Assembly: GCA_963717935.1 (NCBI GenBank)
Contig: CAVQXP010000004.1
Coordinates: forward strand, 1,266,240-1,330,239
DNA: 64,000 bases
Direction of reading: 5' to 3'
Source: Candidatus Eiseniibacteriota bacterium
GTDB taxonomy: Bacteria; Eisenbacteria; RBG-16-71-46
Both the position numbers and the translations under genes were made by a program. Of this stretch, positions 10,880 through 27,295 are shown in pieces (position 1 is the first letter of the stretch; each line of letters starts with the position of its first letter). The notes under the pieces are model-generated. The model was not told the origin of the DNA and did no database searches. It saw nothing but the letters and a program-made list of their open reading frames with translations.

Positions 10880-10943
10880 GGCCGGGGGGGGGGCGCCCCG
10901 CAGGGTGCTTGCCGGGCCGCCCGCCGGGGGCCATGCTCCGGCC

Positions 10944-11363
10944 GTGGAGGAAGGTCACAGCACGTTCGACCACACCGGCGACCTCGGCCTCGAGGTCTGG
11001 GCCCCGCGTGCCGCGCGGCTCTACGCGCTGGCTGCCGAGGTCCTGATGGCGCTGGTCGCGGATGCGCGCGGGGCCGCGCCCGAGCTGGAGCGGGTGGTGC
11101 GGATCACGGGGGATGACCCCGCCGATCTGCTGGTGCACTGGCTGAACACGGTGCTGCTGGAGTCCGAGCTGGCGAAGGCCGTGTGGACGCGCGCGGAGGT
11201 GCACGTCCTGACGCCGACCGCGCTCGAGGCGACGCTGCGGGGCTCGCGACTGGATCCCGCGCGCCAGACCTTCCTGCGTGAGATCAAGGCTGTTTCCCAC
11301 CACGCGCTCGTGCTGGAGCTGAACGAGCCGGCCTGCCGCTGCCGGCTCGTGCTCGACCTCTGA
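10944..11363 (+). CDS. Archease
   Basis: FDHTGDLGL N-terminus, EIKAVSHH, C-terminal LDL. Start uncertain (10905-10944). Confidence 0.85.
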   Translation: MEEGHSTFDHTGDLGLEVWAPRAARLYALAAEVLMALVADARGAAPELERVVRITGDDPADLLVHWLNTVLLESELAKAVWTRAEVHVLTPTALEATLRGSRLDPARQTFLREIKAVSHHALVLELNEPACRCRLVLDL

Positions 11364-11478
11364 ACGGCGCTGCTGCCGGTCGCGCTACTGGCCGCTCGTG
11401 ATGACGTCGTCCCAGGATTTCGCGGCAGGTCAGAAGTAGAGCATGCTGCCCTCCGGAGGCCTACCCGGAGGGGGAGCG

Positions 11479-11745
11479 ATGAAGCGGTCGCGGTACACGG
11501 AAGAGCAGGTGGCCTACGCGCTGCGCCAGGCTGAAGCGGGCACCCCGGTGGGGGACGTCTGCCGGCAGCTGGGCATCGCGGAGGCCACGTTCTATGTCTG
11601 GAAGAAGAAGTTCGCAGGCCTGGGGGTCGGTGAGCTGCGTAAGGTGCGGCAGCTCGAGGAGGAGAACGGCCGGCTGAAGCGGGTGGTGGCGGATCTGACG
11701 CTGGACAAGCACATCCTGCAGGAGGCGCTCCGAAAAAAGGCCTGA
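11479..11745 (+). CDS. IS3 transposase OrfA
   Basis: MKRSRYTEEQV...CRQLGIAEATFYVWKKKF HTH plus leucine zipper. Confidence 0.92.
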   Translation: MKRSRYTEEQVAYALRQAEAGTPVGDVCRQLGIAEATFYVWKKKFAGLGVGELRKVRQLEEENGRLKRVVADLTLDKHILQEALRKKA

Positions 11746-12590
11746 AGCCGACGCGACGCAAGGCGCTGGCGCACTGGATCCACGAGCGGTTCCAGGTGAA
11801 CGTCCGGCGGTCGTGTCGGCTGGCGCTGATCCAGCGGGCGAGTTGGTACTACAAGTCGCAGGCGCAGGACCAGTCGGGGCTCAGGCTGCGGATCCGGGAG
11901 ATTGCCCAGGCCCGCCCGCGGTTCGGTTACGAGCGGATCCACACGCTGCTGCGTCGGGAGGGCTGGCAGGTCAACCGGAAGCGGATTCACCGGCTGTACT
12001 GCCTGGAGGGGCTGCAGGTGCGGATGCGGGTGCGGCGGCGGAAGCAGATGAGCCTGCACCGGGGCCCGGTGCCTCGTCCGACGGCAGCGAACGTCCACTG
12101 GAGCATGGATTTCGTGCACGACCAACTGGCCGACGGGCGGCCATTTCGGGTGCTGACGGTGATCGATCAATGGAGTCGTGAGAGTGTGTTGCTGGAGGCG
12201 GGTTCTTCGCTGACTGGGAAGGCGGTCGCGGAAGCGCTGGATCGGGCGTCCTGGAGGCGTCCCTTGCCCAAGGCGATCACCGTCGATCACGGCACCGAGT
12301 TCACCTCCAAGGCGCTGGACCAATGGGCCTGGCAGCGCGGGATCGAGTTGGATTTCATCCGCCCCGGTAAGCCAATCGAGAACGCGCTGATCGAGTCCTT
12401 CAACGGGCGGCTGCGGGACGAATGCCTGAACGTGAACGAGTTCGTTTCGATGGAGGATGTGCGGCACCGAATCGAGGCCTGGCGGCTCGACTACAATCAC
12501 CGCCGGCCGCATGGCTCGCTCGGGAACCTGACCCCCAGCGAGTTTGCCGAACAGAGTCAGGAACGTGCCTCAGGAGGGGCGGCAGTCTAG
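11742..12590 (+). CDS. IS3 transposase OrfB (rve integrase core; -1 frameshift fusion)
   Basis: WSMDFVHD, TVIDQWSRE, VDHGTEF, IESFNGRLRDECLN, RPHGSLG. Confidence 0.92.
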   Translation: MKPTRRKALAHWIHERFQVNVRRSCRLALIQRASWYYKSQAQDQSGLRLRIREIAQARPRFGYERIHTLLRREGWQVNRKRIHRLYCLEGLQVRMRVRRRKQMSLHRGPVPRPTAANVHWSMDFVHDQLADGRPFRVLTVIDQWSRESVLLEAGSSLTGKAVAEALDRASWRRPLPKAITVDHGTEFTSKALDQWAWQRGIELDFIRPGKPIENALIESFNGRLRDECLNVNEFVSMEDVRHRIEAWRLDYNHRRPHGSLGNLTPSEFAEQSQERASGGAAV

Positions 12591-12692
12591 TTCAGATCTG
12601 TCCGAAAACGGGGCCGACCTCAGTGAGCGGCGGAGTCCAGTTATCCTTTGTCTACTTGACGGGGAAGCTTACGGAGGCATCACGTGTCGGTC

Positions 12693-13328
12693 ATGCTGAG
12701 GACCTCGTTGCCGTGGGTGCTCGTGGGCGCGCTGGCGTGCGCGGGCGCGTGTTCGTCCGGGGACGGCGCGGCGCCCGCACCGACCAGGAGCTTTTCGGAG
12801 GTCTTCTTGAGCGTCGACGCATGGAGCGAAGCGCGCGTCATGACGCTGGTCATCGATGGAGCCGGCCGTCGGACCGGATGGAATAAGGGGGAACAGTTCC
12901 GGGAAATCGTGGGATGTGGACTGGGCTTCGGGACCGAAGAGGGCATTCCGAACCCCGAGGGGGAGCCGGACGACACGTCTGCGACCACCCCGCCGGAGCC
13001 TCTTCCAGGAGATGCAGCCGTCGACACCGTGTCCGGTGAGCGGGAACCGACGCCAAGGTACTACTACTTCCACATCTCTAACGATGCGGTTACCCCGGTT
13101 GGTCTCATCGACCAAGGTGGATGCGAGCTGCGGTTGGATCCCACAGCGGCTGGCAAGGTGCAGCTTGGGCTCAGCGCGAAGAAGGGGGTATTCATTCTGT
13201 GCGAGGACACGACATCGGTCTGGGTAAGGCCCGGGGTGCCGTTGCGCTGGCGGCTGAGCTGGAAGGCTCAGAGAGACAGATGCGTTGTGAGGATCTCCAA
13301 GCTGCCGGCAAGATCTCCCAAGCGCTGA
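12693..13328 (+). CDS. Lipoprotein of unknown function (paralogue of 18150-18764)
   Basis: Lipobox-like AGA-C; shares IDxxGRRTGWN, PTPxYYY, GGCELRL, CxDTTS, PGVPxRWxLSW with the paralogue. Confidence 0.75.
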   Translation: MLRTSLPWVLVGALACAGACSSGDGAAPAPTRSFSEVFLSVDAWSEARVMTLVIDGAGRRTGWNKGEQFREIVGCGLGFGTEEGIPNPEGEPDDTSATTPPEPLPGDAAVDTVSGEREPTPRYYYFHISNDAVTPVGLIDQGGCELRLDPTAAGKVQLGLSAKKGVFILCEDTTSVWVRPGVPLRWRLSWKAQRDRCVVRISKLPARSPKR

Positions 13329-13424
13329 GCGGCACGCAGTCGCCCCCGTTGATCTCGTTTGGAGGCAAGCGCCGCGATTGACATTGGTCGGAGGTCCAGC
13401 ACCGATTCCAATTCTCCATCCGTA

Positions 13425-13901
13425 TCAGCCTCCAATCGTCGTGAACCGCCTCCCCTCGTACGCGCGGTGCTGCAACGCCTCGGCCAACGCGCGCACGCTG
13501 ACGCACTCCTCGCTGGTGAGATCCGCGATCGTGCGCGCCACGCGCATCGCGCGGTGAACCGCGCGTGCGGACATCCCGCCGCGATCCACCGCATCGGCGA
13601 CGAGCCGGCGCCCGGCCTGATCGAGCGCGCAGCACTCGTCGAGCCGCGCAGGGGGCAGGAGTGCGTTCAGGCATCCGCGCTCGCGCTGGCGCGCCCGCGC
13701 CGCGAGCACGCGCGCCCTCACGACCGCGCTCGACTCGCCCAAGGATGCCGCCTGCAGCTCGCGCGACATCAGCGCCGGCACCTCGACCTGGAGATCGATC
13801 CGGTCCAGCACCGGTCCGCTCACCCGCGCGTGGTGCTGCGCGAGATCGGTCGGCGTGCACTTGCAGCCCCGGCGTGGATGTCCGAGCCAGCCGCACTTGC
13901 A
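13425..13901 (-). pseudogene. comM: Orphan 3' fragment of comM (from CKCG to stop)
   Basis: Colinear with 18861-19297; begins abruptly at CKCGWLGHPRRGC with no 5' part. Confidence 0.9.
13465..13901. repeat. comM 3' direct repeat, copy 1 (437 bp, diverged; partner 18861-19297)
   Basis: Hand alignment at constant offset 5396, many substitutions, no net indel. Confidence 0.9.
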
Positions 13902-13909
13902 CCGTTGCG

Positions 13910-14341
13910 TTGCCTTTCTGCAATCTCCGCCTTGTTGGCCGCCGACCTCGTGTGTTCCCAAGGGGTTACCCGCAGGCGCCCCGGTCGCTCGGGGAGCGCA
14001 TACGCCAGCGACGGATGGACCTGGGGCTGACGCAACGAACCCTTGCCGAGCGGCAGGGCTGCTGGCCGGAGACGGTCGCGGCGTGGGAAAGGGGCGAGAG
14101 CGAGCCACTGGCCCGGCGGTGGCCAGCGATCGAGGCGGTCCTCGGAACGGGGCTCGTCCTGGAATGGGGCGGCCTCCCGGGGCGGGTCCGGGCCGCCCGG
14201 CTCCGGCTGGGACTCACGCAGGAGCAGGTCGCTGCCCGTACCGGGCTCGATCCTCGGACGGTTCGGAACGTCGAGACCGGGCGGCATGGGCCGAGCCGGA
14301 GGACTGCCGAGCGGTTGGCGGCGGTCCTCGGCACACTGTGA
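13910..14341 (+). CDS. Tandem XRE/HTH_3 DNA-binding protein
   Basis: LGERIRQRRMDLGLTQ...WERGESEP and RVRAARLRLGLTQEQVA...VETGRHGP. Start uncertain (TTG 13910 or ATG 14015). Confidence 0.8.
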   Translation: MPFCNLRLVGRRPRVFPRGYPQAPRSLGERIRQRRMDLGLTQRTLAERQGCWPETVAAWERGESEPLARRWPAIEAVLGTGLVLEWGGLPGRVRAARLRLGLTQEQVAARTGLDPRTVRNVETGRHGPSRRTAERLAAVLGTL

Positions 14342-16832
14342 GCCCCAGCCCGCCAATGAGGGCGGGACGAGCGTTGCGGCTCGGCTTCGCCGCCCGGAAA
14401 CTTCCCTTGCCCGCCGTCTGCCATGGGGGTGTACTGTGCAACGGACGCACGCCCCGCCGCGGAAACAAGGACTGCTGACCACCGGACCTCATCTCCGACT
14501 CTCTGGCACGGCGGGATCGTGGGGGCCGCCGGCGGGACTCGACTCGCTAATCGAAATGAGTGCGCAAGCGCCCGCTGGCTTGTTGGCGTGCGGAATCACA
14601 CGTGTTCTGACGATGGGAGGCCCACCCATGACAATCAGACTGGCTGTCTTGGTGCTGGTGTTCGCCGCGTTCCATCCCTTGCCCGTGGTGGCGCGAACTC
14701 CGACCAACGATGCGGCCGCCTTCCGCACCTTTGATCTTTACTCGGACCGCGCCGGGGCGGTAGGGACTCTGGATCACCTCAACTTCTCCTCCTCCTACCC
14801 TTCCTACCTGATCAGTCCCGCCTACATGGTGATCCACACGGTCGGAGGCGTTCCCGATACGGTTGCGCTCCTTCACCTGCAGCCGAACGATGCCACGGGG
14901 ATGGAGGTGAACGGGAGTACCCCGACGTCCTACGCCGAGTACGCGGTGGTACCGCCAATACTCGCCACCTCCATCAGCGTCAGCGTCAACGCCGATGTCG
15001 TCTTCGCGGGGCTCGGTCAGTACTACGACTTCCTGAAGCCCCTGGCCACGATCACGGTCACCTACGAAGACGCTTCGACGTGGATGGACACGTTGCGCGT
15101 GGGCCAACACATCAGGACCTGGCTGAGCGGGAGCATCACCTGTTTGGGGGATCTCTGGTACACCTACAACACGCCGCCGTTCGACCAGTACGCGGTCCCT
15201 CTGTATGCCAGCGGGGGCGTGTTCATGGACATGCAAGAGGTCCGGCTCCCGCACGTGCCCAAGAAGATAGCCCTGATCCGAGTGCAAGCCATCGCGCTCG
15301 ACCACTTCTGCAGCATCTACAATCCGCACCTCTACGCTGGCTACCATCTCCACGCTGTCTCGATCTGGCCGACGTTCAACGTCGCAAACGCCTCGTCGCA
15401 GCCTGTCGTGTGGCAGTCCCAGTTCACGAACGTGGACCACGGCGGCTACATGTTCGGCGGCATCCCCGTCGGCACCCGACGACTGATGAACCAGACCGCG
15501 TGTCAGGTCGCATCCCAGGCGATGTGCTACACGTACAGTGGCTTCAATTGCACGCCGACAGCTCTCAACACGTATCTTCAGCAGAATAGAGGCTACGTGC
15601 CAGATCAAGTGGCCATCGTGACGTCCGTCGCACCGGGCGGAGCCTCGATTCGCTATACGGCTACAGGAAAGACAACTCTGAAGGTCGGCGACAGATTCCT
15701 CGTTGAGCACGGCACCTACACGAACCCGCTCGCAACGTACCAGGTGACGGTCGCGGGTCGCCTTGGCCAAGCATCTCGCGTCGCAACCCACAACGCGGCT
15801 GTTCCCTCGGGCGACGATCCCGGTCGTGTGTACTGGAAGATGAAGCCTCGGGTTGCCGACGGGTTCACCAGCAGCCCACAGCTTCGCTCGATTGACCTCT
15901 ACGACTCGCCGCAGCTTGCTGCTCAGGTCGAGAGCCTGCTCGTGCGGGACATCGCGGTGCAACTGAACGTGCCCGACCACTTCGTCGTCGCGTCGGGCTG
16001 GACCTCGTCGTTCCGCCCGGATGGCAGCGCACGAGGGACCTACGCGATCAAGGACCCCTTCGACGACAGGGACTACACCAAGCTCATCGAAGGGAAGTAC
16101 GCCAACAAGTTCGCGATGGCCCGCTACGTTGTCCCGACTGGCGCGCTGGAGGTGGCGGGCAGTGTCGCGGCGCTGAGTGACCCCCCGGGGCTTGGCATCC
16201 TCGCCAGTGGCGCTCGCCGCGTCGAGGTCATCGACCCGCTCGGCCGACACATGCTGCGCGACGCCAGTACGGGGGAAGGCATCTACGAGATTCCGGACGC
16301 CTGCATCGAGGACGTCTCCTCAGAGCACGACAACGGCGGGGACGTGGACGACCCGCTGACCGGCTACGACATTGAGATTCCGACGACGGTCGATGGGCAC
16401 TACACGGTGACCGCGTACTCAGACGACGGCCTCTCGCTGAGCGCGAACGGCTACACGTCGTCGGGCATCTTCGCTTCGGACGGCGCCGTGGACACGACTG
16501 CGGCGCCCGTGGGCAATATCTACGACGTGCTCTACTCGGGGTCGGGGCAATCGGTCTCGGTAAGCCACACCGCCACGCTTGGCGTGAACATCACGTCGCC
16601 CCTGTTCGGCCCGAGCCGTCTGCGGGTGCGCCAGAGCCCTGCTACGGGTCCCGTGGAGTTCGTCATCATTGCCGCGGAGATGACCGCAGACGTCATCGAC
16701 GTGTTCGACGTTAGTGGTCGCCGTGTGGACGCGGTGCAGGTGGACGGCGGCACAGGCACGCGGACGATGCTTTGACCCCCAGTTCAGCGAGACACCTCCG
16801 CAGGGTACCATTGAGGTCCTGGGAGGGCAGTC

Positions 16833-17207
16833 ATGGAGAACGTGGCCAAGGGTTCCGATGGGCGCCGACTGTTCACCGCCGAGTTCAAGCGCACGCAGAT
16901 CGATCGGATCTTGAAGGGGGAGATCACCGCCGCGGAGCTGAGTCGTGAGCTCGGCGTGGCGCGCACGCTGATCCAGCGCTGGAAGTACTTGGTTACCAAG
17001 GGGGCGGAGGCCGCGGTGGGCTCGAACGGCGAGGTCGTCGCCGTGGCCGAGCTGCGGGCGGCGCAGGGGCGGATCAAGGAACTCGAGCGGCTGGTGGGTA
17101 AACAGGCCATGGAGTTGGAGATCCTGCGCGTGGCGCGCGACGAGGTAAAAAAAAGACCGCGCTACTACGGCGTGTCCGCGAAGCGACCGGAGGGTCGGTC
17201 GCGATGA
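16833..17207 (+). CDS. IS3 transposase OrfA
   Basis: RRLFTAEFK...ELSRELGV HTH; IKELERLVGKQAMELEIL. Confidence 0.9.
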   Translation: MENVAKGSDGRRLFTAEFKRTQIDRILKGEITAAELSRELGVARTLIQRWKYLVTKGAEAAVGSNGEVVAVAELRAAQGRIKELERLVGKQAMELEILRVARDEVKKRPRYYGVSAKRPEGRSR

Positions 17208-18028
17208 TCTGCCGCACGCTGCACATCGGCCGCGCGACGGCCTACCGCAAGGATCGCCCGCGACCTCGGCGCTATCGCCGGCAGGAGGACGAAGTGGTGC
17301 TGGCCCAACTGCGGCAGATGCTACGCGAGCGCGCCAGCTACGGCTATCGCCGCGCCCGCCGGATCGTCAATCGCCAGTTCGGCACCACCTACAACCGCAA
17401 GCGGATCCAGCGGGTGATGCGCCTCTATGGCCTGGCACTGCCGGTCCGGGGTCGCCGTCGCCGCGGGCGCCGGCACGAGGGCCAGGTCGAGTGCGTGATC
17501 TCGAACCAGCGGTGGTGCTCGGACGTGCTGGAGATCGCGTGCTGGAACGGCGAGGTCGTGCACCTGGCGTTCGCGCTCGACTGCTGCGACCGCGAGGTCC
17601 CGGCCCACGTCGCGACGCCGTACCCGACGTCGGGGATCGAGATCCGCCGGCTGATCCGCAAGACCGTCTTCGCGCGCTACGGGAACGAGAAGCCCGCGGT
17701 GCCGATCGAGTGGCTCACCGACAATGAGGGGATCTACACCGCACTCGAGACGGTGATCGAGGCCGAGCGGCACCACCTGGCGCCGATCACGACGCCGGTG
17801 GCGAGCCCGGAATCCAACGGCATGGCCGAGGCGTTCGTGAACACCTTCAAGCGCGACTACGTGGCAGGTGGCGACTTGGCCTCGGCGGCACGCGTGCTGG
17901 AGCAGATCCCTGGCTGGATCGAAGACTACAACACCTTCGCGCCGCACTCCTCGCTCGGGATGCTGTCCCCGGCCGAGTTCCGACTCGAACAGCAGACAGT
18001 TGCAGACACCGGGTGTCTCACGAAATAG
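17204..18028 (+). CDS. IS3 transposase OrfB
   Basis: RWCSDVLEI, FALDCCDRE, WLTDNEG, SPESNGMAEAFVNTFKRDY, PHSSLG. Confidence 0.9.
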   Translation: MICRTLHIGRATAYRKDRPRPRRYRRQEDEVVLAQLRQMLRERASYGYRRARRIVNRQFGTTYNRKRIQRVMRLYGLALPVRGRRRRGRRHEGQVECVISNQRWCSDVLEIACWNGEVVHLAFALDCCDREVPAHVATPYPTSGIEIRRLIRKTVFARYGNEKPAVPIEWLTDNEGIYTALETVIEAERHHLAPITTPVASPESNGMAEAFVNTFKRDYVAGGDLASAARVLEQIPGWIEDYNTFAPHSSLGMLSPAEFRLEQQTVADTGCLTK

Positions 18029-18149
18029 GGGTCAAAGCAACGATCACATGGGACTGGCGCACAATCGGCACCCGCTCTGGCGTCTACCTCGCCCGGCTGC
18101 GCTCTCGGGCCAACGAGACGGCTCGGTTCGTCATCCTCCGTTGACGAAC

Positions 18150-18764
18150 ATGAAGCGAGCGTTCTACGGGGTAGTGGCCTGCGTGGTCCTGGGCGTGGGA
18201 GCATGCGCGTTGCGCTCCAGCGCGCCCTCCAGCACTTCCGGGAAGTTCTTGCAGGTGCTCGTGAGCATCTACGCCTTCGGTGATGCGCGTGTGGGTGCTG
18301 TGCTCATCGACCGCGAGGGCCGCCGAACGGGCTGGAACGTTGATCGACCGATCCGGCAGATACCGGGAGTGTTGAACGGGTACGGCTCCGACGTGGGCAT
18401 TACTGACGAGAGCACGCCGGCGGATACGACGGAACCACCCCCCGCTGACACGGTACCCGGACATCCCGAGCCGACGCCCATTTACTACTACCTCTCGATT
18501 CAGGATTCAGCAGGAACACCCGGCCTGCTCCGGGAGGGCGGGTGTGAGCTCCGCCTCGTCCCCGTTGCGGGAGGTCGCGTCAGCCTCGCGATTACCGGGA
18601 CGGGGGCCGGATTCAGCCCGTGCCAAGACACGACCTCGTTCACGGTCACACCTGGCGTCCCCACGCGATGGTGGCTGAGTTGGAGCAAGAGTGGGAACAA
18701 GTGCGTCGTGGACCTCTCCAGAATGAACCGGAGCAGGCCGCGACCTCAGTCGCGCGTCAGGTAG
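18150..18764 (+). CDS. Lipoprotein of unknown function (paralogue of 12693-13328)
   Basis: MKRAFYGVVACVVLGVGA-C lipobox; ATG lies 5 nt after the restored stop of the peptidase gene. Confidence 0.75.
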   Translation: MKRAFYGVVACVVLGVGACALRSSAPSSTSGKFLQVLVSIYAFGDARVGAVLIDREGRRTGWNVDRPIRQIPGVLNGYGSDVGITDESTPADTTEPPPADTVPGHPEPTPIYYYLSIQDSAGTPGLLREGGCELRLVPVAGGRVSLAITGTGAGFSPCQDTTSFTVTPGVPTRWWLSWSKSGNKCVVDLSRMNRSRPRPQSRVR

Positions 18765-18823
18765 CATCTTTGGGCTTGCGCTTCGCGCAGGCAATGAACG
18801 AAAGCCGTGTGTTGCGGGGCTGA

Positions 18824-20338
18824 TTACCGGGCTGCGGCATGCCACCTTACTTCGGTTGCCCGGTACTGCAACGCCTCCGCCAACGCGCGCACGCTGATGC
18901 GCTCCTCGCCTGCCAAGTCCGCGATCGTGCGCGCCACGCGCGTCGCGCGGTGCACGGCCCGGGCGCTCATCCCGCCGCGGTCCACGGCGTCGGCGACGAG
19001 CCGGCGCCCGACCTGATCCAGCGCGCAGCACTCCTCGAGCCGAGCGGGCGGCAGGAGCGCGTTCAGGCAACCGCGCTCACGCTGATGCGCCCGCGCCGCA
19101 AGCACGCGCGCGCGTACCACTGCGCTCGACTCGCCCGGCATCGCCGCCTGCAGCTCGCGTGACGTGAGCGCCGGCACCTCAATCTGAATATCAATCCGAT
19201 CCAACACTGGCCCACTAACTCGCGCGTGATGTTGTGCTATATCAGTCGGAGTGCAGCGGCAGCCGCGTCGCGGATGCCCGAGCCAGCCGCACTTGCAGGG
19301 ATTCATCGCCGCCACGAGCAGTGCGCGGGCGGGGAACTCGCTGGCGCCGCTGGCGCGGACGATGGTGACCGTGCCGTTCTCGAGCGGCTGGCGCAGGGCG
19401 TCGAGCAGGCCGCGCGCGAACTCCGACAACTCGTCGAGGAAGAGCACGCCGTGGTGGGCGAGCGAGATCTCGCCGGGGCGCGGCGGGGAGCCGCCGCCCA
19501 CCAGGCCCGCGGGCGAGACCGTGTGGTGCGGTGCGCGGTAGGGGCGGCGCGTCATGAGTCCCCGCCCGGGGCGGCGCAGCCCGGCGGCGGAGTGCAGGCG
19601 CGTGACCACCAGCGCCTCGTCGGGCTCGAGCGGCGGGAGGATGCCGGGCAGGCGCCTGGCGAGCATGGACTTGCCCGCGCCGGGCGGGCCGATGTAGAGC
19701 AGGTGGTGCCCGCCGGCAGCGGCGATCTCGAGCGCCCGGCGCGCCACGGCCTGCCCGCGCACCTCGCCGAGGTCCTCGCTCGTGGCGGGCTCCGGGTCCG
19801 GCGGCGCCGGGGCCTGGCGGGGCGACTCCGCGCCGCGCAGCCACTCGACCGCCTCGTGCAGGGTGCCCACGGCGTGCACGACGAGGCCCTCGACGAGCGC
19901 GGCCTCCGGGGCGCAGGCGGAGGCGCACAGCAGGCTCGTTACGCCCGCGCGCCACAGCGCCTCGGCCAGGGGCAGGGTGCCCCGCACGCCGCGCAGGCGG
20001 CCGTCGAGCGCGATCTCGCCCAGCGCGGCCGCGTCTTCGAGACGCTCGCGCGGGGCCTGGCCGGTGGCGACCAGCACGCCGAGGGCGACGGCGAGGTCGG
20101 CCGAGGCGCCTTCCTTGCGGCGCTCGGCGGGCGCGAGGTTCACGGTGACCTTGCGGTCGGGGAGCTGGAAGCCCGCGTTGCGCAGCGCGGGCCAGACCCG
20201 GTCGCGCGCCTCGCGGCCGGTGGCGTCGGGGAGCCCGACGAGGACGAAGCCGGGCAGGCCGGGCCCGACATCCACCTCGCACTCGACCGGGAGCGCCTCC
20301 AGGCCCCAGAGGGCGGCCGTCCGCACGCGGCTCAGCAT
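18824..20338 (-). CDS. comM: ComM/YifB Mg-chelatase-like AAA+ helicase, intact
   Basis: VGLPD, VTVNLAPA, GPPGAGKSMLARRLPGILP, RAPHH, LAHHGVLFLDE, AAMNPCKCG, SGPVLDRID. Confidence 0.95.
   Translation of the reverse strand: MLSRVRTAALWGLEALPVECEVDVGPGLPGFVLVGLPDATGREARDRVWPALRNAGFQLPDRKVTVNLAPAERRKEGASADLAVALGVLVATGQAPRERLEDAAALGEIALDGRLRGVRGTLPLAEALWRAGVTSLLCASACAPEAALVEGLVVHAVGTLHEAVEWLRGAESPRQAPAPPDPEPATSEDLGEVRGQAVARRALEIAAAGGHHLLYIGPPGAGKSMLARRLPGILPPLEPDEALVVTRLHSAAGLRRPGRGLMTRRPYRAPHHTVSPAGLVGGGSPPRPGEISLAHHGVLFLDELSEFARGLLDALRQPLENGTVTIVRASGASEFPARALLVAAMNPCKCGWLGHPRRGCRCTPTDIAQHHARVSGPVLDRIDIQIEVPALTSRELQAAMPGESSAVVRARVLAARAHQRERGCLNALLPPARLEECCALDQVGRRLVADAVDRGGMSARAVHRATRVARTIADLAGEERISVRALAEALQYRATEVRWHAAAR
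18861..19297. repeat. comM 3' direct repeat, copy 2 (inside intact comM)
   Basis: Partner of 13465-13901. Confidence 0.9.
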
Positions 20339-20401
20339 GGGCCTGCTCCCGGGGAGGCGGGTCGCGGGGGTGACGCCCGGAGCAACGCAAGCACCGCGCC
20401 A
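20201..20401. repeat. 201-bp direct repeat, copy 1 (comM promoter plus first 46 codons)
   Basis: Identical to 24572-24772 except 20393 A vs 24764 G (hand alignment). Confidence 0.95.
20387..20401 (-). promoter_or_regulatory. Candidate sigma54 -24/-12 promoter of comM
   Basis: TGGCGCGGTGCTTGC (GG-N10-GC), 48 nt upstream of the comM ATG; second copy at 24758-24772. Confidence 0.6.
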
Positions 20402-20629
20402 ACCCCAGGAACGCAACGGGCTCTCAATCCCGCGCGCCGGTTCGACCCTCCAGCGTGAGCTACAGCACGCTCCGGGGCCACGCAGACCCTCGCGGCCAGG
20501 ACCAGCCTCTCGATAAGCCACGCCCCCAAAAATACCCAATGGTCGACCTCTTCTTCGGATTGCCCCGAGGACAATCACGCAGTGCTTGCGGTAGCAGGGC
20601 TCGGCCGGGCACGTGCGTATATCTTTCCC

Positions 20630-20657
20630 TTGACACTGACCTGGCGAGGAATATCTT
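20630..20657 (+). promoter_or_regulatory. Candidate sigma70 promoter of the S8 protease gene
   Basis: TTGACA-16 nt-TATCTT in an AT-richer intergenic region. Confidence 0.35.
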
Positions 20658-20944
20658 CCGCACAGGTTCTCAGGGGAACCCAAAGCAAGGGTTCACGTGA
20701 CCTTGCCTAGGAGGGTTGTGATTGGTGCAACGCCTCTCTCGATTCGTGAGGCAACCGAATCGCTCCATAGTTCCAGACTACATTCTAACTGAGCGGCAGA
20801 ACGCACCTCGTGACACGCGACTCACCCGTCTCCTGTCCATTCATCGTCCAATGGAGGAAGGATGAGGAAGTAGCATGGGCCGCATCATGACCACACTACC
20901 CGGAAGTTTTCTGCGTCTCAGCAAGCCGCCCTGTGGAGGGTTCT

Positions 20945-23704
20945 ATGCGCTGGTACACAGTAGTGCTTCTCCTGGGATGTTGTGGCGTGGCATACGCAGG
21001 AGACAACCAAACGGGCCAAGCATGTCTGAGTTGGTCCGCAGAAGGCGTGGTCACAAGGGACGACGCTGCTCCTCAAGCGCTATTCCCGGTCTTCGTACAC
21101 GTTGACGGCGCTCCAAGCATCAGCGGTCTCTCTGTATGTCTCCGCTGGAACCCAAGCTCGTACGTGTTGGTGAATCCACCGGCGGATTGGAAGGCTGATG
21201 TCGGATACAACGTTAATGTGGCTCCGCACGCCACGTTCGCAGACGACGCCGCATTTGACGCGACAATTGTCTTTCCAGCCCCTCCTGGCGATCACGCAGT
21301 CGTAGCCTATTGGTTCCGATATGCGGCCACGGGGGCACCGCCCCCTGCCACGTTCTGCCTCGCTCAAGTCAAGGCAATGGATGGCGCTGGCGCAATCGAT
21401 GATCTCGCGCTGCTTGATGGATTGAGTCTGGGCGGCCGCGCCGTGACTGACGGGTGTCCGCCGACTCCTTCGCACATTGCCAGGGGAAAGCTGCTCGTGC
21501 TGATGCGTGCGGAGGCTCTCAGCTCAGGGAGTGACCAGGAGCTAGCGTCCCCTGAGCAACTGTTGGCTTCTCGCGGAGCAGCAGACTCCCTTGCCGCCGC
21601 CGGGGTGCTTGCCATGGTGCGGATCTCCCCGGTGGGCCTGAGCGGCGGCACGTGTTCGCGCAATCTGATCGGTGAACCGATTGTGCTGCCTGACCCCGGC
21701 GCGGTCTACGTGGCCCATCTGCGTCCTGACGTTCTGGCGAAACGTGCCGCATTCGCGCTCTCGGACGTTAGCGCCGTCAGATCCGCACGACCAATTCCCC
21801 TCGTGCAACTCTACCACACGCCACAGGATCCTATGTTCAGCCGGCAATGGGCGCTCAGCAACACGTCCCAGACCTATGGCTGTACGCTTCCTGCCTTCAA
21901 TGCGAACACAGATATTCATCTGCCTGCTGCACTGGACATGACGGTCGCTCGTGGAGCTGGGGTGCGCGTCGGGGTATTGGACTCAGGGGTTCAAAGTGAC
22001 CACCCGGAGCTTATAGGTCGCGTTGAGGCAGGTCACAACGCCATAGCACACTCATATGGGTTGGACTGGGCGACTGAAGACAGCACGTCGCACGGCACGG
22101 CGGTGGCCGGCATCATCGCGGCTGCAAGTGACAACGGCATTGGTATAGCTGGCATCGCGGATGCCGCGACGATCGTGCCAATCCGCCTTAACTCCGGATA
22201 CTACTTTCCGCTGGAGGTTGGGACCAGTTGCATGTCTGACTTCCCCAGCTTCCCGCTAGATGCTGCGCTAGACGGGTTATGGTGGGCGACTGATTCTACG
22301 TCGACGATACCGATTCTCAACATGTCGTGGGGCACCGTAGCTCCGGAGGAGTACACTCCCTATCTTGCGACGGCCTGCCTTGCGGGACTGTTGAAGGGGC
22401 AGTTTCTGGTTGCGGCATCTGGAAACGACAACTGGGGCCATCCCGACTGGGTTCCGGCACCAGCCAGGTACGCGAAGCGGGTGTTTTCGGTCGGGGCGGT
22501 CTTCGGTAATGGTCTGCGATGGGATGACCGAGTGCTCCCCCAGCCGCTAGGTGGCTGGGGAATGTTCAGCGCGTTGTCAAGCTGGGTGTTGGGCTACCCG
22601 GTCCCCATCGGCTCGAACTGGGGCCCTCACCTAACTGCCGTGGCCCCTGGCGGACACATGATCGCTGCGCTGCGTATGTACACCTTGGTCGACTCGCTCT
22701 ATCGCTGGAAATACATTTTCGACTGCGCCCACAAGTATTTCGAAGTTGACTCGTGTGGCGTGAGTTATGCAGACATGGACTCCGTGGAATTCGGTGGGAC
22801 ATCTGCGGCGGCGCCAACCGTTGCGGGTGTGGCCGCTCTGATACTCGGAGAGCATCTAGGGGCCTTGGTGGGCGAGGACATAACCCAAACACTTATCCGG
22901 ACGGCGGTGGATCCGATCACTGGCGCTCCAAGCAGTGGGAGAAGCGACACGTTAGGGGCAGGGATGATCCGTGCCGACCGGGCACTGGCCTTTCTCGCTT
23001 CCCCGAAAATCATCGATCATCCCCGTGCCACCAGCCTCGCTGTTGCGGACGTAGACACGGTACAGGTCAGCTTCACAGGAGGCACGCCCGGGATTCCTGA
23101 TGGCCAGTACGATGCTGTTAGGTATCGCCTGGCCGGTCGCGCAGCGTTCTCTCAAGCGTTGTACGCAGATACTGGGTCGACATGGGTGCGGGCATCAGGA
23201 ACTCAAGGCATGCTGGATGTCTCTACGTACAACTACTTGGCGGATGTGCCGTTTGGGCGAATCACGTCCATAGACACATTGGGCGTTGACGTGGAGACCT
23301 TTGTCTACCAGGTCTTGAGTGGTGGCAACGTGCTCGCGTGGTATCCGTGCGACACCGCGTCAGCCGCGGTGGCAACGACTGCTGTCGGGTATCCCCCCGC
23401 CGTAGCGGGAGTGGGTGTAGAGCCTGCGCTTCGCTTTGGAATCACGGTTTCCCCTACCCCAACCCGAGGACGGGCAGTGCTGAGCCTCCTCTGCCCGGGG
23501 CCGGCAATTGTCGAGGCAGGTATCTACGACGTGCAGGGGCGGGTTGTGCGTCACCTTGGTCGTCGGTCAGTGGCAGGAGGAACTGTGCAGTATGTCTGGG
23601 ACGGTCGGCGAGATGACGGTGGATATGCAGCGGACGGCGTGTACTATGCGCGCGGGATCGCCAATGCTCAGTCGAAGGTCGTAAGGGTTGTCTTACTCAG
23701 ATGA
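20945..23704 (+). CDS. Secreted S8 (subtilisin-family) serine protease with an FlgD-Ig/T9SS-like C-terminal domain
   Basis: Signal peptide; triad GVLDSG / HGTAVAGII / GTSAAAPTVAG; C-terminus IYDVQGRVVRHL...WDGR...GVYYAR...RVVLLR; visibly lower GC than the core genes. Confidence 0.9.
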   Translation: MRWYTVVLLLGCCGVAYAGDNQTGQACLSWSAEGVVTRDDAAPQALFPVFVHVDGAPSISGLSVCLRWNPSSYVLVNPPADWKADVGYNVNVAPHATFADDAAFDATIVFPAPPGDHAVVAYWFRYAATGAPPPATFCLAQVKAMDGAGAIDDLALLDGLSLGGRAVTDGCPPTPSHIARGKLLVLMRAEALSSGSDQELASPEQLLASRGAADSLAAAGVLAMVRISPVGLSGGTCSRNLIGEPIVLPDPGAVYVAHLRPDVLAKRAAFALSDVSAVRSARPIPLVQLYHTPQDPMFSRQWALSNTSQTYGCTLPAFNANTDIHLPAALDMTVARGAGVRVGVLDSGVQSDHPELIGRVEAGHNAIAHSYGLDWATEDSTSHGTAVAGIIAAASDNGIGIAGIADAATIVPIRLNSGYYFPLEVGTSCMSDFPSFPLDAALDGLWWATDSTSTIPILNMSWGTVAPEEYTPYLATACLAGLLKGQFLVAASGNDNWGHPDWVPAPARYAKRVFSVGAVFGNGLRWDDRVLPQPLGGWGMFSALSSWVLGYPVPIGSNWGPHLTAVAPGGHMIAALRMYTLVDSLYRWKYIFDCAHKYFEVDSCGVSYADMDSVEFGGTSAAAPTVAGVAALILGEHLGALVGEDITQTLIRTAVDPITGAPSSGRSDTLGAGMIRADRALAFLASPKIIDHPRATSLAVADVDTVQVSFTGGTPGIPDGQYDAVRYRLAGRAAFSQALYADTGSTWVRASGTQGMLDVSTYNYLADVPFGRITSIDTLGVDVETFVYQVLSGGNVLAWYPCDTASAAVATTAVGYPPAVAGVGVEPALRFGITVSPTPTRGRAVLSLLCPGPAIVEAGIYDVQGRVVRHLGRRSVAGGTVQYVWDGRRDDGGYAADGVYYARGIANAQSKVVRVVLLR

Positions 23705-23905
23705 TAGCCGAGCTATCACATGCCCGATCGATGGCGTCGGACGGTTGAGGACTCACCCACGGCCACCCGGACGAGGGACGTGCTCGGGGCGTTTCGTCTA
23801 TTGACGCGATGGGATCTTTGGCGCATGCTTGTTGTGGCCGGGACAGGGGCAACCTGTCGTCACTTGCCTCTGAAATCGGTCGGAGGCAATTGTTCGGGAG
23901 GAACC

Positions 23906-24505
23906 GTGAAGACGCTCATCGCCATTCTTGTCCTCGCGATGGTGGGTTTAGTGCCCCCGATCGCCCGAGCGACGGCCGCTGACAGCTGCGGATATGCATA
24001 TGCGGACGACTTCACCACGAACGCCGTAGAGGTCGACAGCTACTCGCATACAAAGATTGAGGAGAGCTTCTGCTTTACGTGTGGAAGTGGATGGCTCATG
24101 TTTGCCACCGATTCGACCGGGAACCGCGGCCTTGGCTTCTATCCTGGCCTGCTATACGGCTCGCAGAACGCCTATGTGACGTACCGATTTCCGCAGGACG
24201 GCATCGCAGGAGGGATGGTCGGCAGTCTGGCATTCGACGCTCTGTGCTATGTCGGTCTTACTGGGGATGGTGGGTTTGCTTGGGCCGATGTAGTCGTCCT
24301 CTATGACGACGTGTACGCAGCAACGGCGCACATCTCAGAACCTGGCCACTACAGGTTCGAACTAGCACCGCCCCTGACGGCGTCGAAGGTGTACCTCCAC
24401 ATCACTGGTCAGCTGTTCCGGTTGGACAATCTGTCCGTATGCTTGGACGTCTCGACGCCAACCCGCACCACGACGTGGGGAAGGCTCAAAGCGTTCTACC
24501 GTTGA
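23906..24505 (+). CDS. Secreted hypothetical protein with C-terminal TTWGRLKAFYR motif
   Basis: GGAGG RBS plus GTG; signal peptide KTLIAILVLAMVG; terminal motif. Confidence 0.75.
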   Translation: MKTLIAILVLAMVGLVPPIARATAADSCGYAYADDFTTNAVEVDSYSHTKIEESFCFTCGSGWLMFATDSTGNRGLGFYPGLLYGSQNAYVTYRFPQDGIAGGMVGSLAFDALCYVGLTGDGGFAWADVVVLYDDVYAATAHISEPGHYRFELAPPLTASKVYLHITGQLFRLDNLSVCLDVSTPTRTTTWGRLKAFYR

Positions 24506-24571
24506 CGGTAATCAGCCAACACTCTTGCGGGCCGGTCCTCTTGGATTGGTCCGCATCGTCTTGTATCCTAA

Positions 24572-24709
24572 GTCGCGCGCCTCGCGGCCGGTGGCGTCGG
24601 GGAGCCCGACGAGGACGAAGCCGGGCAGGCCGGGCCCGACATCCACCTCGCACTCGACCGGGAGCGCCTCCAGGCCCCAGAGGGCGGCCGTCCGCACGCG
24701 GCTCAGCAT
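24572..24709 (-). pseudogene. comM: Orphan 5' fragment of comM (46 codons)
   Basis: [12 protein letters not shown]...GREARD identical to the intact comM, then unrelated sequence. Confidence 0.92.
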
Positions 24710-24772
24710 GGGCCTGCTCCCGGGGAGGCGGGTCGCGGGGGTGACGCCCGGAGCAACGCAAGCGCCGCGCCA
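24572..24772. repeat. 201-bp direct repeat, copy 2
   Basis: Partner of 20201-20401. Confidence 0.95.
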
Positions 24773-24958
24773 GCTTGCGGTCAGGCCGGCGGGGGCGGGG
24801 CGGCCGCTGAGCTCCGGAGCCTCTGCAGGCCCGGGCGCCGCGGCCATCTGCCACTGCCCGGGCCGATGCCCGCCGGGGACGCTGCGGCAGCACTCGATTT
24901 GCGCTCAACCTCCTGGGCTGCTGGTCGATAACCCACTCCTGGACGCCCACCACCGGGA

Positions 24959-27295
24959 GTGACGCCATTGCGGCAAGGACGCTCGGAACCCACTCATCAT
25001 CCAGAGCACGATCTCGCACGAACGCTGGTGGGTGAACTCACCGCGGCGTTCTCGCCACGCGAGGCCGCGGCCGAGGTCCGGCTTCTCCTGAAGTCGCTGC
25101 GGATCGCGCTGCCCGGTGCGGGTCAGCGTCGATTGCGTGTCGTCCTCACGCGTGCGGCCCGCCGCTGGCGTCGGCGGGGCCTGGGTGACGACGCCGTGGC
25201 GCGGATGGTGCTGGAGTTGGCCGCGCCGGGGGTCCTCCGCACCATCCCGCGCGCCCTCCCGGGGTCCGGCTGCGCGCTGAGGGCCGTGTTGGACTCGGTG
25301 CCCATCCCCATGATCACCGGGGACCGGGATCTGCGGGTCACCGTGTGCAATGCCGCCTTCGAGGAACTCGTCCACGAGTCGAACGCCGCGCTCGAGGGCA
25401 GGCCGCTGTCGGAGCTGCTGGGGCCCGAATGCCGTGAGGACCTGCCCCGGCAGCTCGAAGCGATGAACTCCGGCGCCGGTGCGATGCAGATCGGCCGCAT
25501 GACCCTGGTCAGCGTGCCCGGGGCGGAGTTCCTCGGGGCATGGATCCCGCTCCGGCAGCCTGACGGAGTGGGGACCTGGCTGCTGCGGTTGGCCTCGGGC
25601 TCCGCCGCGTCGCTCGAGACCCTGGGCGAGCAGTTGCGCCAGGAGGAATCGCAGAAGGAAAAACTCACCGCGCTGCTCACCGTGAGCAACGCGGTGGTGA
25701 CCTCGCTCGAGCTGGACCAGATCCTCGACACCATCGCGCGTGAGGTCCGCAAGGTCATCCAGGTGGACGAGTGCATCGTATTCCTGCTCGACGAGGCGCA
25801 GAAGGTGCTCGTGCCGGCGGCCTGCGACGTGCAGGAGTTCCGCGACGAGGTCATGGCCATCCGCCTGCCGGTGGGCCAGGGCGTGACGGGCAGCGTGGTG
25901 CTGACCGGAAGGGGCGAGATCGTCAACGGTGCCCTGGATGACCCGCGGGCCGTCCAGGTGCCGGGCACGCCGGTCGAGCAGTCGGCGCTGCTCTGCGTCC
26001 CCCTGCTGGTGCGCGAGGAGGTGGCCGGGGCCATCACGCTCACGCGGGCCGGAGGCCGCGTCTTCCAGAACGAGGACCTGGAGCTGGCGACGCTGTTCGC
26101 CGGCCAGTGCAGTGCGGCCATCTCGAATGCGCGCCTCTACGAGGAGATCCGGCGCGCCTACCACGAGCTGCGCGAGGCCCAGTCTCAGCTGGTGCAGTCG
26201 GCCAAGCTCAACGCCCTCGGCGAGATGGCGGGTGGCGTGGCCCACGACTTCAACAACATCCTGGCCGCGATCCTGGGGCGCGCGCAGTTGCTGCTGCAGG
26301 GTGTTTCGGACGAGGGGCAGCGCCGCCAGCTCGAGATCATCGAGCGGGCCGCCCTCGACGGTGCGCAGGCGGTGCGCCGGGTGCAGGAATTCACGCGCCT
26401 GCGGCAGGACGAGCACTTCGAGGCACTGGACGTAAAGGAGGTGCTGCAGGGCGTGCTCGATCTGACGCGCTCGGCCTGGGAGGCGGAGTCCAAGCGGCGC
26501 GGCATCGCGCTGGCGGCCGTCCTCGACCTGCGCGCCGGGCAGCTCGTCGCGGGCAATGCCTCGGAGCTGCGCGAGGTCTTCACGAACCTGGTCCTGAACG
26601 CGCTCGACGCCATGCCGTGGGGTGGCACGCTCACGCTCTCGAGCGCCGACGCGGATGGCGAGGTCTGCATCCGCGTGAGCGACACCGGCGTGGGGATGGA
26701 CGCCGAGACGCGCGGGCACATCTTCGACCCCTTCTTCACCACCAAGCTGGTCAAGGGCACCGGGCTCGGCCTCTCGGTGGCCTACGGCATCATCACGCGC
26801 CACCACGGCCGCATCGAGGTCGAGTCCGAGCCGGATTGCGGCAGCGTCTTCAGCGTCTGGCTGCCTGCGGCGCTGGCGCGCCAGGCGGAGCCCGAGGTGC
26901 CATCGGACGCGCCGTTGCCGCGCCTGCGCGTGCTGGCGGTGGACGACGAGGAGCCGGTGGTGCAGGTGCTCGGCGACCTGCTCGCCGCGCTGGGCCAGGA
27001 GGTGGAGATCGCCCTGGGCGGCGCGGCGGGGCTCGAGCGCTACTCACCCGAGCGTTTCGACGTGGTGTTCACCGACCTCGGCATGCCCGGGGTGAACGGC
27101 TGGGACGTGGTGCAGACGGTCAAGTCGCGCTCACCGGACACGCCGGTCGTGATCGTCACCGGCTGGGGGGCGCAGATCGAGGGTGGGGCCTTGCGCGCGC
27201 GGGGCGCGGACTACGTGATCCCCAAGCCCTTCTCGCTCGAAGATGTCCGGGAGGTGCTGCGGCAGCTGAGCGTGGGCCCCGCACGTGCCGCCTGA
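24959..27295 (+). CDS. Hybrid sensor histidine kinase (PAS-GAF-HisKA-HATPase-REC)
   Basis: AHDFNNIL, NLVLNALDAM, DTGVGM, FFTTK, GTGLGL; receiver VDDEE...TDLGMP...KPF. Confidence 0.93.
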   Translation: MTPLRQGRSEPTHHPEHDLARTLVGELTAAFSPREAAAEVRLLLKSLRIALPGAGQRRLRVVLTRAARRWRRRGLGDDAVARMVLELAAPGVLRTIPRALPGSGCALRAVLDSVPIPMITGDRDLRVTVCNAAFEELVHESNAALEGRPLSELLGPECREDLPRQLEAMNSGAGAMQIGRMTLVSVPGAEFLGAWIPLRQPDGVGTWLLRLASGSAASLETLGEQLRQEESQKEKLTALLTVSNAVVTSLELDQILDTIAREVRKVIQVDECIVFLLDEAQKVLVPAACDVQEFRDEVMAIRLPVGQGVTGSVVLTGRGEIVNGALDDPRAVQVPGTPVEQSALLCVPLLVREEVAGAITLTRAGGRVFQNEDLELATLFAGQCSAAISNARLYEEIRRAYHELREAQSQLVQSAKLNALGEMAGGVAHDFNNILAAILGRAQLLLQGVSDEGQRRQLEIIERAALDGAQAVRRVQEFTRLRQDEHFEALDVKEVLQGVLDLTRSAWEAESKRRGIALAAVLDLRAGQLVAGNASELREVFTNLVLNALDAMPWGGTLTLSSADADGEVCIRVSDTGVGMDAETRGHIFDPFFTTKLVKGTGLGLSVAYGIITRHHGRIEVESEPDCGSVFSVWLPAALARQAEPEVPSDAPLPRLRVLAVDDEEPVVQVLGDLLAALGQEVEIALGGAAGLERYSPERFDVVFTDLGMPGVNGWDVVQTVKSRSPDTPVVIVTGWGAQIEGGALRARGADYVIPKPFSLEDVREVLRQLSVGPARAA

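Follow-up and report, generated by a model that had tools for sequence, protein, structure and literature searches.

The gene comM, which serves transformation, is the site in Acinetobacter at which AbaR islands and the Tn6019-Tn6022 elements insert by Tn7-like transposition, leaving a short target duplication and a disrupted gene. At icd, the target of phage 21 and e14, and at the tRNA genes occupied by islands, the incoming element brings a diverged replacement for the 3' end of the gene, which stays functional; accretion of cis-mobilizable elements is reportedly known from ICESt1-type att sites. The present work concerns a comM locus in a 64-kb stretch (hereafter the window) of the Candidatus Eiseniibacteriota contig CAVQXP010000004.1, in which an intact comM gene is flanked by two GC-poor cargo blocks. 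Block 1 lies between the intact gene and a displaced fragment of the comM 3' end, and block 2 between the intact gene and a second copy of the comM promoter region and first 46 codons (Table 1). The genome to which the window belongs (G000) is a 3.0-Mb assembly of five contigs, 93% complete and resembling a metagenome-assembled genome (MAG).

Genes of the comM family are also targets of serine recombinases. In the survey by Durrant et al. (2022, PMC10083194), Mg-chelatase/ATP-dependent-protease homologues are the commonest predicted target of the large serine recombinases (LSRs), receiving 12.4% of the predicted site-specific LSRs, and competence genes are enriched among LSR targets. The phage WO sr1WO prophages integrate into the Wolbachia Mg-chelatase gene by means of a serine recombinase, and HTH_XRE genes are located at their far end (PMC9203015). 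In Dehalococcoides, as described by McMurdie et al. (2011, PMC3146451), islands are arranged in tandem downstream of a single gene, ssrA, with direct repeats of its 3' end; a CcrB-like serine recombinase and a small second one carry out integration, and some of these islands lack the integration module.

LSR targeting of Mg-chelatase/comM and tandem accretion are therefore already known, and what is new at this locus is the occurrence, at an LSR site, of non-autonomous units that carry a replacement gene end. On balance, the evidence favors block 1 being a recombinase-less derivative of an LSR element at a hot spot in the 3' part of comM, with its units mobilized by an LSR in trans. The puzzle posed by the lack of a recombinase is largely solved for the 3' side, where, as judged from sequence comparison, a recombinase acting in trans is the leading candidate mechanism of entry.

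LSR elements at the comM 3' crossover

The locus was compared with those of 102 genomes of the order; the unpublished genome G026 is counted among them, but none of the specific claims depends on it. In five of these genomes (G005, G046, G022, G027 and G047), a gene encoding an LSR, defined by Resolvase, Recombinase and zinc ribbon domains, abuts the exact comM crossover, the dinucleotide TG. In G005, a congener of the window genome, the native flanking gene RadC is followed by a comM fragment and then by a 574-aa LSR whose reading frame crosses the junction, with an HTH_17 protein and a Prim-Pol gene behind it. A second LSR clade, with 65–72% mutual identity, is present in G046, G022, G027, G047 and G097, and four of its five members abut comM at the crossover; no comM sequence was found in the 4 kb examined for the G097 LSR. 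The LSRs of G005 and G046 read into the comM 3' part, and in G022, G027 and G047 the comM 5' part (residues 1–349) converges with the LSR. The full plan can be seen in G022, where the comM 5' part is followed by the LSR, the remainder of the element, a helix-turn-helix (HTH) gene and the comM 3' fragment. In G046 an element of this type lies in the reverse orientation, and an HTH gene 69% identical to that of the window directly follows the comM 5' part. These full elements split comM, and none of the five carries a replacement comM end. The G005 element also begins with a second, small serine recombinase (L037, contig C171, 4103-4549), which recalls the CcrA/CcrB and DsiA/DsiB pairs.

The phage-type attachment sites (attP) of these elements were rebuilt by joining both ends of single elements. 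The site from G022 reads GGCAACGCC-N4-TG-N4-GGCGTTGCC, that from G027 reads GGCAACG-N6-TG-N6-CGTTGCC and that from G005 reads CAATTG-N13-TG-N13-CAATTG, each an inverted repeat centered on TG; the G005 site was made by joining two contigs. Block 1 retains the Xre double-HTH gene and the attP half-site GGCAACGCAACGG followed directly by TG; the position of the LSR end is taken in it by a replacement comM 3' end. Its arm is the HTH-side half of the palindromic sites rebuilt in G022 and G027; because the conserved arm is half of the rebuilt attP, it is identified as an LSR attP half-site, and position 13901/13902 as an attR-type junction. The two boundaries of block 1 are arm/TG/comM-3' and comM-5'/TG/comM-3', the latter being attB-like, and the block has no recombinase of its own. 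A cassette and an LSR element are found side by side in G046, where the LSR adjoins the replacement end of the cassette on one contig, and possibly also in G005. There, the arm of a cassette meets a candidate arm of the LSR element, whose opposite end is on a separate contig; this putative adjacency in G005 uses the same pair of joined contigs as the attP reconstruction.

The G005-type LSR was also considered as a general helper for units of this kind. This was rejected, as its 80% identical relative in G055 is located at another site and its 50% identical relatives are at a tRNA-like sequence (judged by eye).

Recombinase-free units across the order

A search with the last 172 residues of ComM yielded 24 extra copies starting at residue 342–348. 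Two that run to the end of a contig were set aside, and the remaining 22 comM 3' fragments are spread over 17 of the 102 genomes. In every junction read, homology at the nucleotide level starts at the TG of the Cys codon in MNP/CxCGW, and facing the fragment across this TG, at least 20 junctions show the conserved arm AAAGGCAACGC-N5. The arm (GGCAACGC-N5, abutting TG) sits ~40 nt from a homologous HTH gene that reads away from it. The HTH family of the window has 34 matches in 23 genomes, of which 17 (in 14 genomes) are located 16–44 nt from a comM fragment starting at residue 342–348. The other 17 include one joined to the arm of another element (G005), one immediately after the comM 5' part (G046), one fused to non-comM DNA (contig C148 of G010) and several whose only comM 3' copy is at the opposite end of the unit. 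A recombinase-free unit of the block 1 type recurs in 14 genomes of the order; comM is intact in nine arrays, and in G022, G027, G046 and G047, each of which has a full element, the gene is split.

Pfam analysis of open reading frames (ORFs) and tblastn searches, the latter with three LSRs over 158 loci, detected no LSR, LSR piece or tyrosine recombinase in the cassette intervals examined, which were those of the window, G004, G010 (three), G021, G057, G059, G060, G071 (three), G073, G076, G098, G046, G005 and G101. IS3 transposases are common within these intervals. The cargo is variable: a recurring pair combines a GH32/43-like protein, which has a FlgD_ig tail, and a DUF5122 beta-propeller bearing a Por_Secre_tail, and other cassettes contain an FG-GAP protein, a KaiC/KaiB/kinase set or the protein/lipoprotein pair of the window. 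In the G073 cassette (L077, 2544-6680), KaiC, KaiB and a hybrid histidine kinase stand in place of secreted proteins. Tandem arrays of three units in G071 and two units at L116 were identified. G076 belongs to the same genus as G071 and contains a single one of its three units, the most distal, with 75–78% nucleotide identity along the entire unit; this is the order that insertion of new units at the comM-proximal site would produce. The module is also present in MAGs labeled Verrucomicrobiaceae, Armatimonadota and Rhodothermales. In the Verrucomicrobiaceae-labeled MAG (L117), the unit consists only of the HTH gene and the replacement end, with the arm AAAATTGGCAATGTATCCA directly before TG and 3' copies that are 74% identical.

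A preliminary description of the locus had proposed testing for recurrent partial comM duplications with shared breakpoints and variable cargo in related genomes, and such duplications do recur, on the 3' side in 17 and on the 5' side in three of the 102 genomes. The stacking of units with preservation of comM that it envisaged is likewise borne out by the arrays of G071 and L116 and by the nine arrays with an intact gene. Its proposal of recombinase-free accretion holds in that the cassettes examined never contain a recombinase, but not for the site itself, at which LSRs occur. Of the two entry routes that it named, a recombinase acting in trans is now the leading one.

Several loci depart from the common arrangement. 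In G010 (L024, L027, L028, L032 and L064), four HTH units and eight comM pieces are distributed over six contigs; two of the units adjoin thiolase genes, one of which is truncated, and the fragments on contig C38 nest in the clade of another genus in a tree. This pattern could be the result of transfer between genera or of a binning error. In G021 (L025, 6844-8628), comM forms one 651-aa frame with ~316 nt between codon 109 and a repeat of codons 96–109, and the ChlI domain is truncated in Pfam. The comM matches of G019 (L031, 7929-9446) lie in several frames with stop codons and resemble a pseudogene. G006 has no clean empty 3' site, its spacer containing other DNA and no archease gene, and G007 may have a duplicated comM 3' end divided over two contigs.

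Proposed origin of the 3' units and alternative explanations

In the favored reading, the position between Pro343 and Cys344, with crossover TG, would be the attB of a family of LSR elements that have the LSR gene at one end, the Xre double-HTH gene at the other, and attP at the point where the two ends meet in the circular form. Block 1 would have kept the HTH end and the attP half-site, the latter now fused to the old comM 3' end of the resident in an attR-type junction. The diverged replacement 3' end brought by block 1 is fused in frame to the resident 5' part, so that comM is whole and the left boundary is attB-like again. Its cargo is an HTH-led operon, encoding a secreted protein and a lipoprotein, that was recently divided by an IS3 element. 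A circular unit (arm-TG-comM 3' end) may thus have recombined at TG with the resident comM by means of an LSR in trans, and units presumably pile up because each restores the landing site. Whole arrays may also pass between close relatives by homologous recombination. The left lipoprotein and its comM fragment are probably the stump of an older unit, cut at an IS3 element that lacks a target duplication. As G000 has no cognate LSR, the array would currently be stranded. The replacement end and its neighboring genes resemble a captured comM-downstream region, which may have been acquired by aberrant excision of an integrated element that took attR and flanking DNA with it; the cargo of the window parallels the genes found beside the comM fragment in the window and in G004. 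The placement of the exchange is supported by a contig from sequencing run X4, which is 98–99% identical to the comM 5' part of the window to within 30 nt of the TG. Over the following 120 nt the contig agrees with the displaced fragment (5 mismatches) and not with the 3' part of the intact gene; this switch near TG offers thin evidence for an exchange at the crossover.

Several points weigh against this reading. The identification of the displaced fragment as the old end of the resident uses these 120 nt of one metagenome contig, and in the congeners all 3' pairs are 80–86% identical, which does not discriminate the native copy. The origin of the replacement comM end is one that we infer, as none of the five full elements has such an end. 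A cassette site composed of one P-type and one comM-type half-site is a non-canonical attP, and canonical LSRs are not known to recombine hybrid sites of this sort unless a directionality factor is present. The fragment and the intact 3' part of the same genome are usually nearest relatives of one another, 7–16% apart, which suggests movement mostly among close kin; exchange among close kin, or homologous recombination, fits this pattern as well as site-specific entry does. No LSR of the comM-associated clades was found in the 93% complete G000, which also has no tandem LSR element, and LSRs at the site are rare, occurring in five of the 102 genomes as compared to 14 with cassettes.

The units might be plain decayed islands, that is, dead remnants of full LSR elements that once had both a recombinase and a replacement end. 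LSR elements do use the site, IS3 elements and IS-associated deletion are found in the window and in G004, G057, G080 and G098, and G000 contains no cognate LSR, all of which such decay would account for. It is nevertheless rather unlikely, given that the cassette intervals examined contain neither an LSR nor a detectable piece of one, that none of the five full elements has a replacement end, that units reduced to the HTH gene and replacement end exist (L117), that the arm is conserved across genera and phylum labels, and that ordered tandem arrays are hard to obtain from independent decays. Integrase-bearing elements, which the preliminary description had named as the mark of simple decayed islands, are indeed present at the site; as these elements split the gene and have no replacement end, the cassettes are more than decayed copies of them. 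Homologous recombination as the mode of entry is a possible, if weaker, alternative: integration would be Campbell-style within the 480-nt homology, or arrays would be swapped during transformation, leaving the LSR junction as an inherited scar and giving the block 2 repeat the same origin. The sister relationship usual between the fragment and intact 3' part of one genome would follow from this, as would the mosaic appearance of the 3' parts within the genus and of the X4 contig, and the role of comM in transformation is in keeping with it. The two copies of the comM 5' end (R and R') are identical at 200 of 201 positions, as one crossover with DNA from within the population would leave them. 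The X4 switch point within 30 nt of the TG, however, would put the exchange at the crossover. The 5' break on the same nucleotides in three genera is not predicted by homologous recombination, and sequences of 80–86% identity are poor substrates for RecA.

It is highly improbable that the repeats are mis-joins of strain variants. The assembly is MAG-like and in five contigs, the assemblies of relatives frequently break at these repeats, and the 24571/24572 junction is not bridged by any listed contig; runs X1 to X3 are low-depth, such that gaps there provide no evidence. A short-read contig from run X3, on the other hand, independently crosses the 20401/20402 junction with zero mismatches, and the two 3' copies differ by 16% and so cannot be a collapsed repeat or mis-joined variants. 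Comparable architecture is found in the single-contig genome G004, on a 1.16-Mb contig of G059 and in many other assemblies. Empty-site alleles, which the preliminary description had suggested looking for, are represented by the X4 relative. This organism, from another study, has both insertion sites empty: 564 nt separate its archease gene from comM, whose 5' end continues directly into the kinase flank. X4 has no depth on block 2, and its contig goes from R into the flank (24650-24991).

A more far-reaching version of the trans-mobilization reading would make comM an integron-like platform run by serine recombinases. In such a system the cassette site, through its copy of the comM 3' end, would mimic the attR of a full LSR element. 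It could react with attB or take over an excision-type reaction in which the attL of a resident element is the partner, repairing the gene and regenerating the site; arrays could then grow without limit and reshuffle, and a mirror-image system would operate at codon 46. We regard this extension as tentative and rather doubtful.

Organization of the locus and cargo genes

The features of the locus are listed in Table 1. The arrangement of an intact comM between a 3' fragment and a 5' copy agrees with the preliminary description, as does the absence of recombinases: no tyrosine or serine recombinase was detected in the window by Pfam, including a search for PF00589. Elsewhere in G000 there are two PF00589 matches on another contig and one LSR ~540 kb away. 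This LSR, the only one in the genome (C4:1829517-1831100), is ~26% identical to the comM-associated clades. The displaced fragment comprises approximately the last 155 codons of comM and shares 84% nucleotide identity with 18858-19297 over ~440 nt, its homology to comM beginning precisely at the Cys codon of MNP/CKCGW. The 201-nt repeats R and R' span −63 to +138 of comM and end after codon 46 (REARD). The GC content of both blocks is 56–68%, as compared to 72–80% in comM and the flanks. Homologues of the downstream flanking genes in G004 and G005 (93–96% and 84% identity) have RadC and Archease Pfam domains, and the two genes are close to comM in G004, G005, G007, G010, G019 and G022; in G006 and G007 the kinase gene directly adjoins the comM start. 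Scans of 11000-26000 for tRNA/tmRNA genes and Rfam families gave no match, indicating that no RNA gene is the insertion target.

Table 1. Features of the comM locus in the 64-kb window.
Feature	Position	Strand	Remarks
Native downstream flank of comM	10175-11363	+	RadC-like gene 10175-10879; archease gene 10905-11363
IS3-family element 1	11405-12673	+	orfA 11479-11745, orfB 11796-12590; HTH_Tnp_1, rve (Pfam)
Lipoprotein 1	12684-13328	+	Convergent with comM fragment; signal peptide and lipobox from translation
Displaced comM 3' fragment (B)	13425-13901	minus	Codons 344-end; Mg_chelatase_C and tail of Mg_chelatase (Pfam)
LSR attP half-site AAAGGCAACGCAACGG	13902-13917	minus	Abuts crossover TG (13901-13900)
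Xre-type regulator	13952-14341	+	HTH_3 x2 (Pfam); head-to-head with comM fragment; first gene of cassette operon
Secreted cargo protein, 708-715 aa	14628-16775	+	Signal-like N-terminus
IS3-family element 2	16768-18039 (insertion 16764-18043)	+	Terminal inverted repeats; 4-bp target duplication ACGA
Lipoprotein 2	18150-18764	+	Cargo; convergent with comM
Intact comM	18824-20338	minus	504 aa; ChlI, Mg_chelatase, Mg_chelatase_C all complete (Pfam)
comM replacement 3' end (B')	18824-19297	minus	Cassette-borne part of intact gene
comM resident 5' part (A)	19298-20338	minus	
R'	20201-20401	minus	comM promoter region (−63) to codon 46, joined to intact gene
Second arm-motif copy GGAACGCAACGG	20408-20419	+	6 nt beyond R'; inverted relative to 13902-13917 arm
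S8 subtilase	20933-23704	+	Block 2 cargo; FlgD_ig C-terminal tail (Pfam); GC 56–62%
Secreted 199-aa protein	23906-24505	+	Block 2 cargo
R	24572-24772	minus	comM promoter region and codons 1-46, beside native upstream flank
Native upstream flank, hybrid histidine kinase	25028-27295	+	Pfam

The two lipoproteins are paralogues with 42% amino acid identity, and lipoprotein 1 is probably the end of an older, truncated cassette. The large secreted protein of block 1 is 38.5% identical to a 1,024-aa protein that adjoins comM in G004. No family was found for this protein, either lipoprotein or the 199-aa protein in Pfam, NCBIfam, PHROGs, PDB sequences or the Atlas, and a C39-like peptidase label in the preliminary description found no match in these same collections. 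Its term "secreted effector" is likewise too strong for the cargo, which consists of secreted or surface proteins of unassigned role. The closest relatives of the S8 protease within the order are just 37–40% identical, and neither a close orthologue nor a comM context was found for it elsewhere in the order. The first ~150 residues of the S8 protease (20933-21450) are 29–35% identical to the N-termini of unrelated large cargo proteins of G004 (L023, 5955-6443) and G010 (L028, 1786-2274), which suggests a predicted N-terminal module shared among cargo proteins.

Both IS3 elements had been described as having target duplications of their own, which is correct for IS3 element 2 and not for IS3 element 1. 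The bases flanking element 1 differ and a 98% identical copy is present elsewhere on the contig; the lack of a target duplication suggests that this element probably marks an adjacent IS-mediated deletion. It occupies the spot expected for the remainder of the older cassette or for native spacer. Contigs from runs X1 and X2 join 16763 to 18040 without IS3 element 2 and with zero mismatches, indicating that this insertion is recent and polymorphic in the population. In G004 (L023, 9715-13088), two near-identical inverted IS3 copies surround a comM fragment and HTH gene in an arrangement like that of a composite transposon.

The 5' side of comM

Fragments of comM 5' sequence ending at codon 46–52 were found in three of the 102 genomes (G000, G091 and G031), representing three genera and two families. 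The break follows ...CGCGAGGCGCGCG(A) in both G000 and G091 and falls at the same codon in G031, and the duplicated copy reaches upstream to −63 in G000, ~−25 in G031 and ~−30 in G091 (by eye). The sequences point to a putative second site-specific hot spot at codon 46, at which incoming DNA would supply a promoter and the first 46 codons. Block 2, with its S8 protease and secreted protein, would accordingly have brought a replacement promoter and 46 codons to this site. Against this, no element-side sequence next to the fragment is common to the three 5' insertions; a single homologous crossover could also explain why R and R' are almost identical. No recombinase was found within 1.7 kb upstream of the intact comM of G031.

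The only other exact copy of AACGCAACGG in the window is located 8 nt beyond R', inverted with respect to the 13902-13917 arm. The 12-mer arm motif has two matches in the window at ≤1 mismatch, and at ≤2 mismatches there are nine, compared to a shuffle mean of 9.9, which is no excess. A similar arm-like motif lies ~70 nt upstream of the intact comM of G091 (L156, contig C21). The motif at 20408-20419 could serve the HTH protein as an operator, or it could be the relic of a half-site. Its polarity and its neighboring dinucleotide (GC) are both wrong for a simple LSR junction.

Two further arrangements involving this motif were considered and rejected. In one, a single element would carry the whole of comM between the inverted arm motifs at 13902-13917 and 20408-20419; the dinucleotides differ (TG vs. 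GC), and the comM 5' part is 98–99% identical to that of the closest relative while the 3' part is not. In the other, the 201-nt repeat, whose two copies each start with TG, would have its crossover at the −63 end; the polarity of the arm motif is wrong for this, and it is the codon-46 end that recurs while the upstream extent varies.

Comparison with known systems

LSR insertion into comM-family genes is very common and has usually been read as competence silencing. The window-type units do the opposite, in that they occupy the site yet restore the gene, without a recombinase and in ordered arrays of secreted-protein operons, and they are found across an uncultured phylum and apparently beyond it. 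If mobilized in trans, they would be to serine recombinases what integron cassettes or cis-mobilizable elements are to tyrosine recombinases, with a natural att site composed of one phage-type and one host-type half-site, and would offer hosts or hitch-hiking elements a route for undoing competence knock-outs.

With the AbaR islands the window shares comM as a target, but its repeats are 201 and ~480 nt long and its comM is intact; the only transposases among the large ORFs of the window are of the IS3-type rve class (Pfam), and no TnsABC(D)-type genes were identified among them. The locus also differs from an integron, as the unit boundaries are comM sequence and an LSR half-site; the window has no PF00589 match, and no attC-like inverted repeats were reported in it. 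Phage 21 and e14 at icd, like the islands at tRNA genes, have a tyrosine integrase beside the att site, unlike the units of the window. Cis-mobilizable elements, as generally understood, are non-autonomous att-bounded units that accumulate beside a recombinase-bearing element and can move with it. The ICESt1-type systems are said to use tyrosine integrases and short att repeats; mobilization of the window units is putative.

The ssrA islands of Dehalococcoides resemble the G005 element in having a second, small serine recombinase. They have a 20-bp repeat of the tmRNA gene, and most of them keep an integrase module (PMC3146451), whereas the repeat in the window is a ~480-nt diverged copy of a protein-coding gene and no unit keeps a recombinase. 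The sr1WO prophage is like the LSR elements at comM in having the recombinase at one end, HTH_XRE at the other, and pieces of the target gene flanking; it is a full prophage that splits the gene, whereas the window unit has no recombinase or phage genes among those examined and leaves the gene whole (PMC9203015). Similarity of the window HTH protein to Wmk is weak and confined to the HTH level (29.6 bits, with the cut-off at 300). Finally, the available portion of the Durrant survey describes the target genes as disrupted and does not report replacement gene ends, recombinase-free units or arrays (PMC10083194); in the window, comM is intact.

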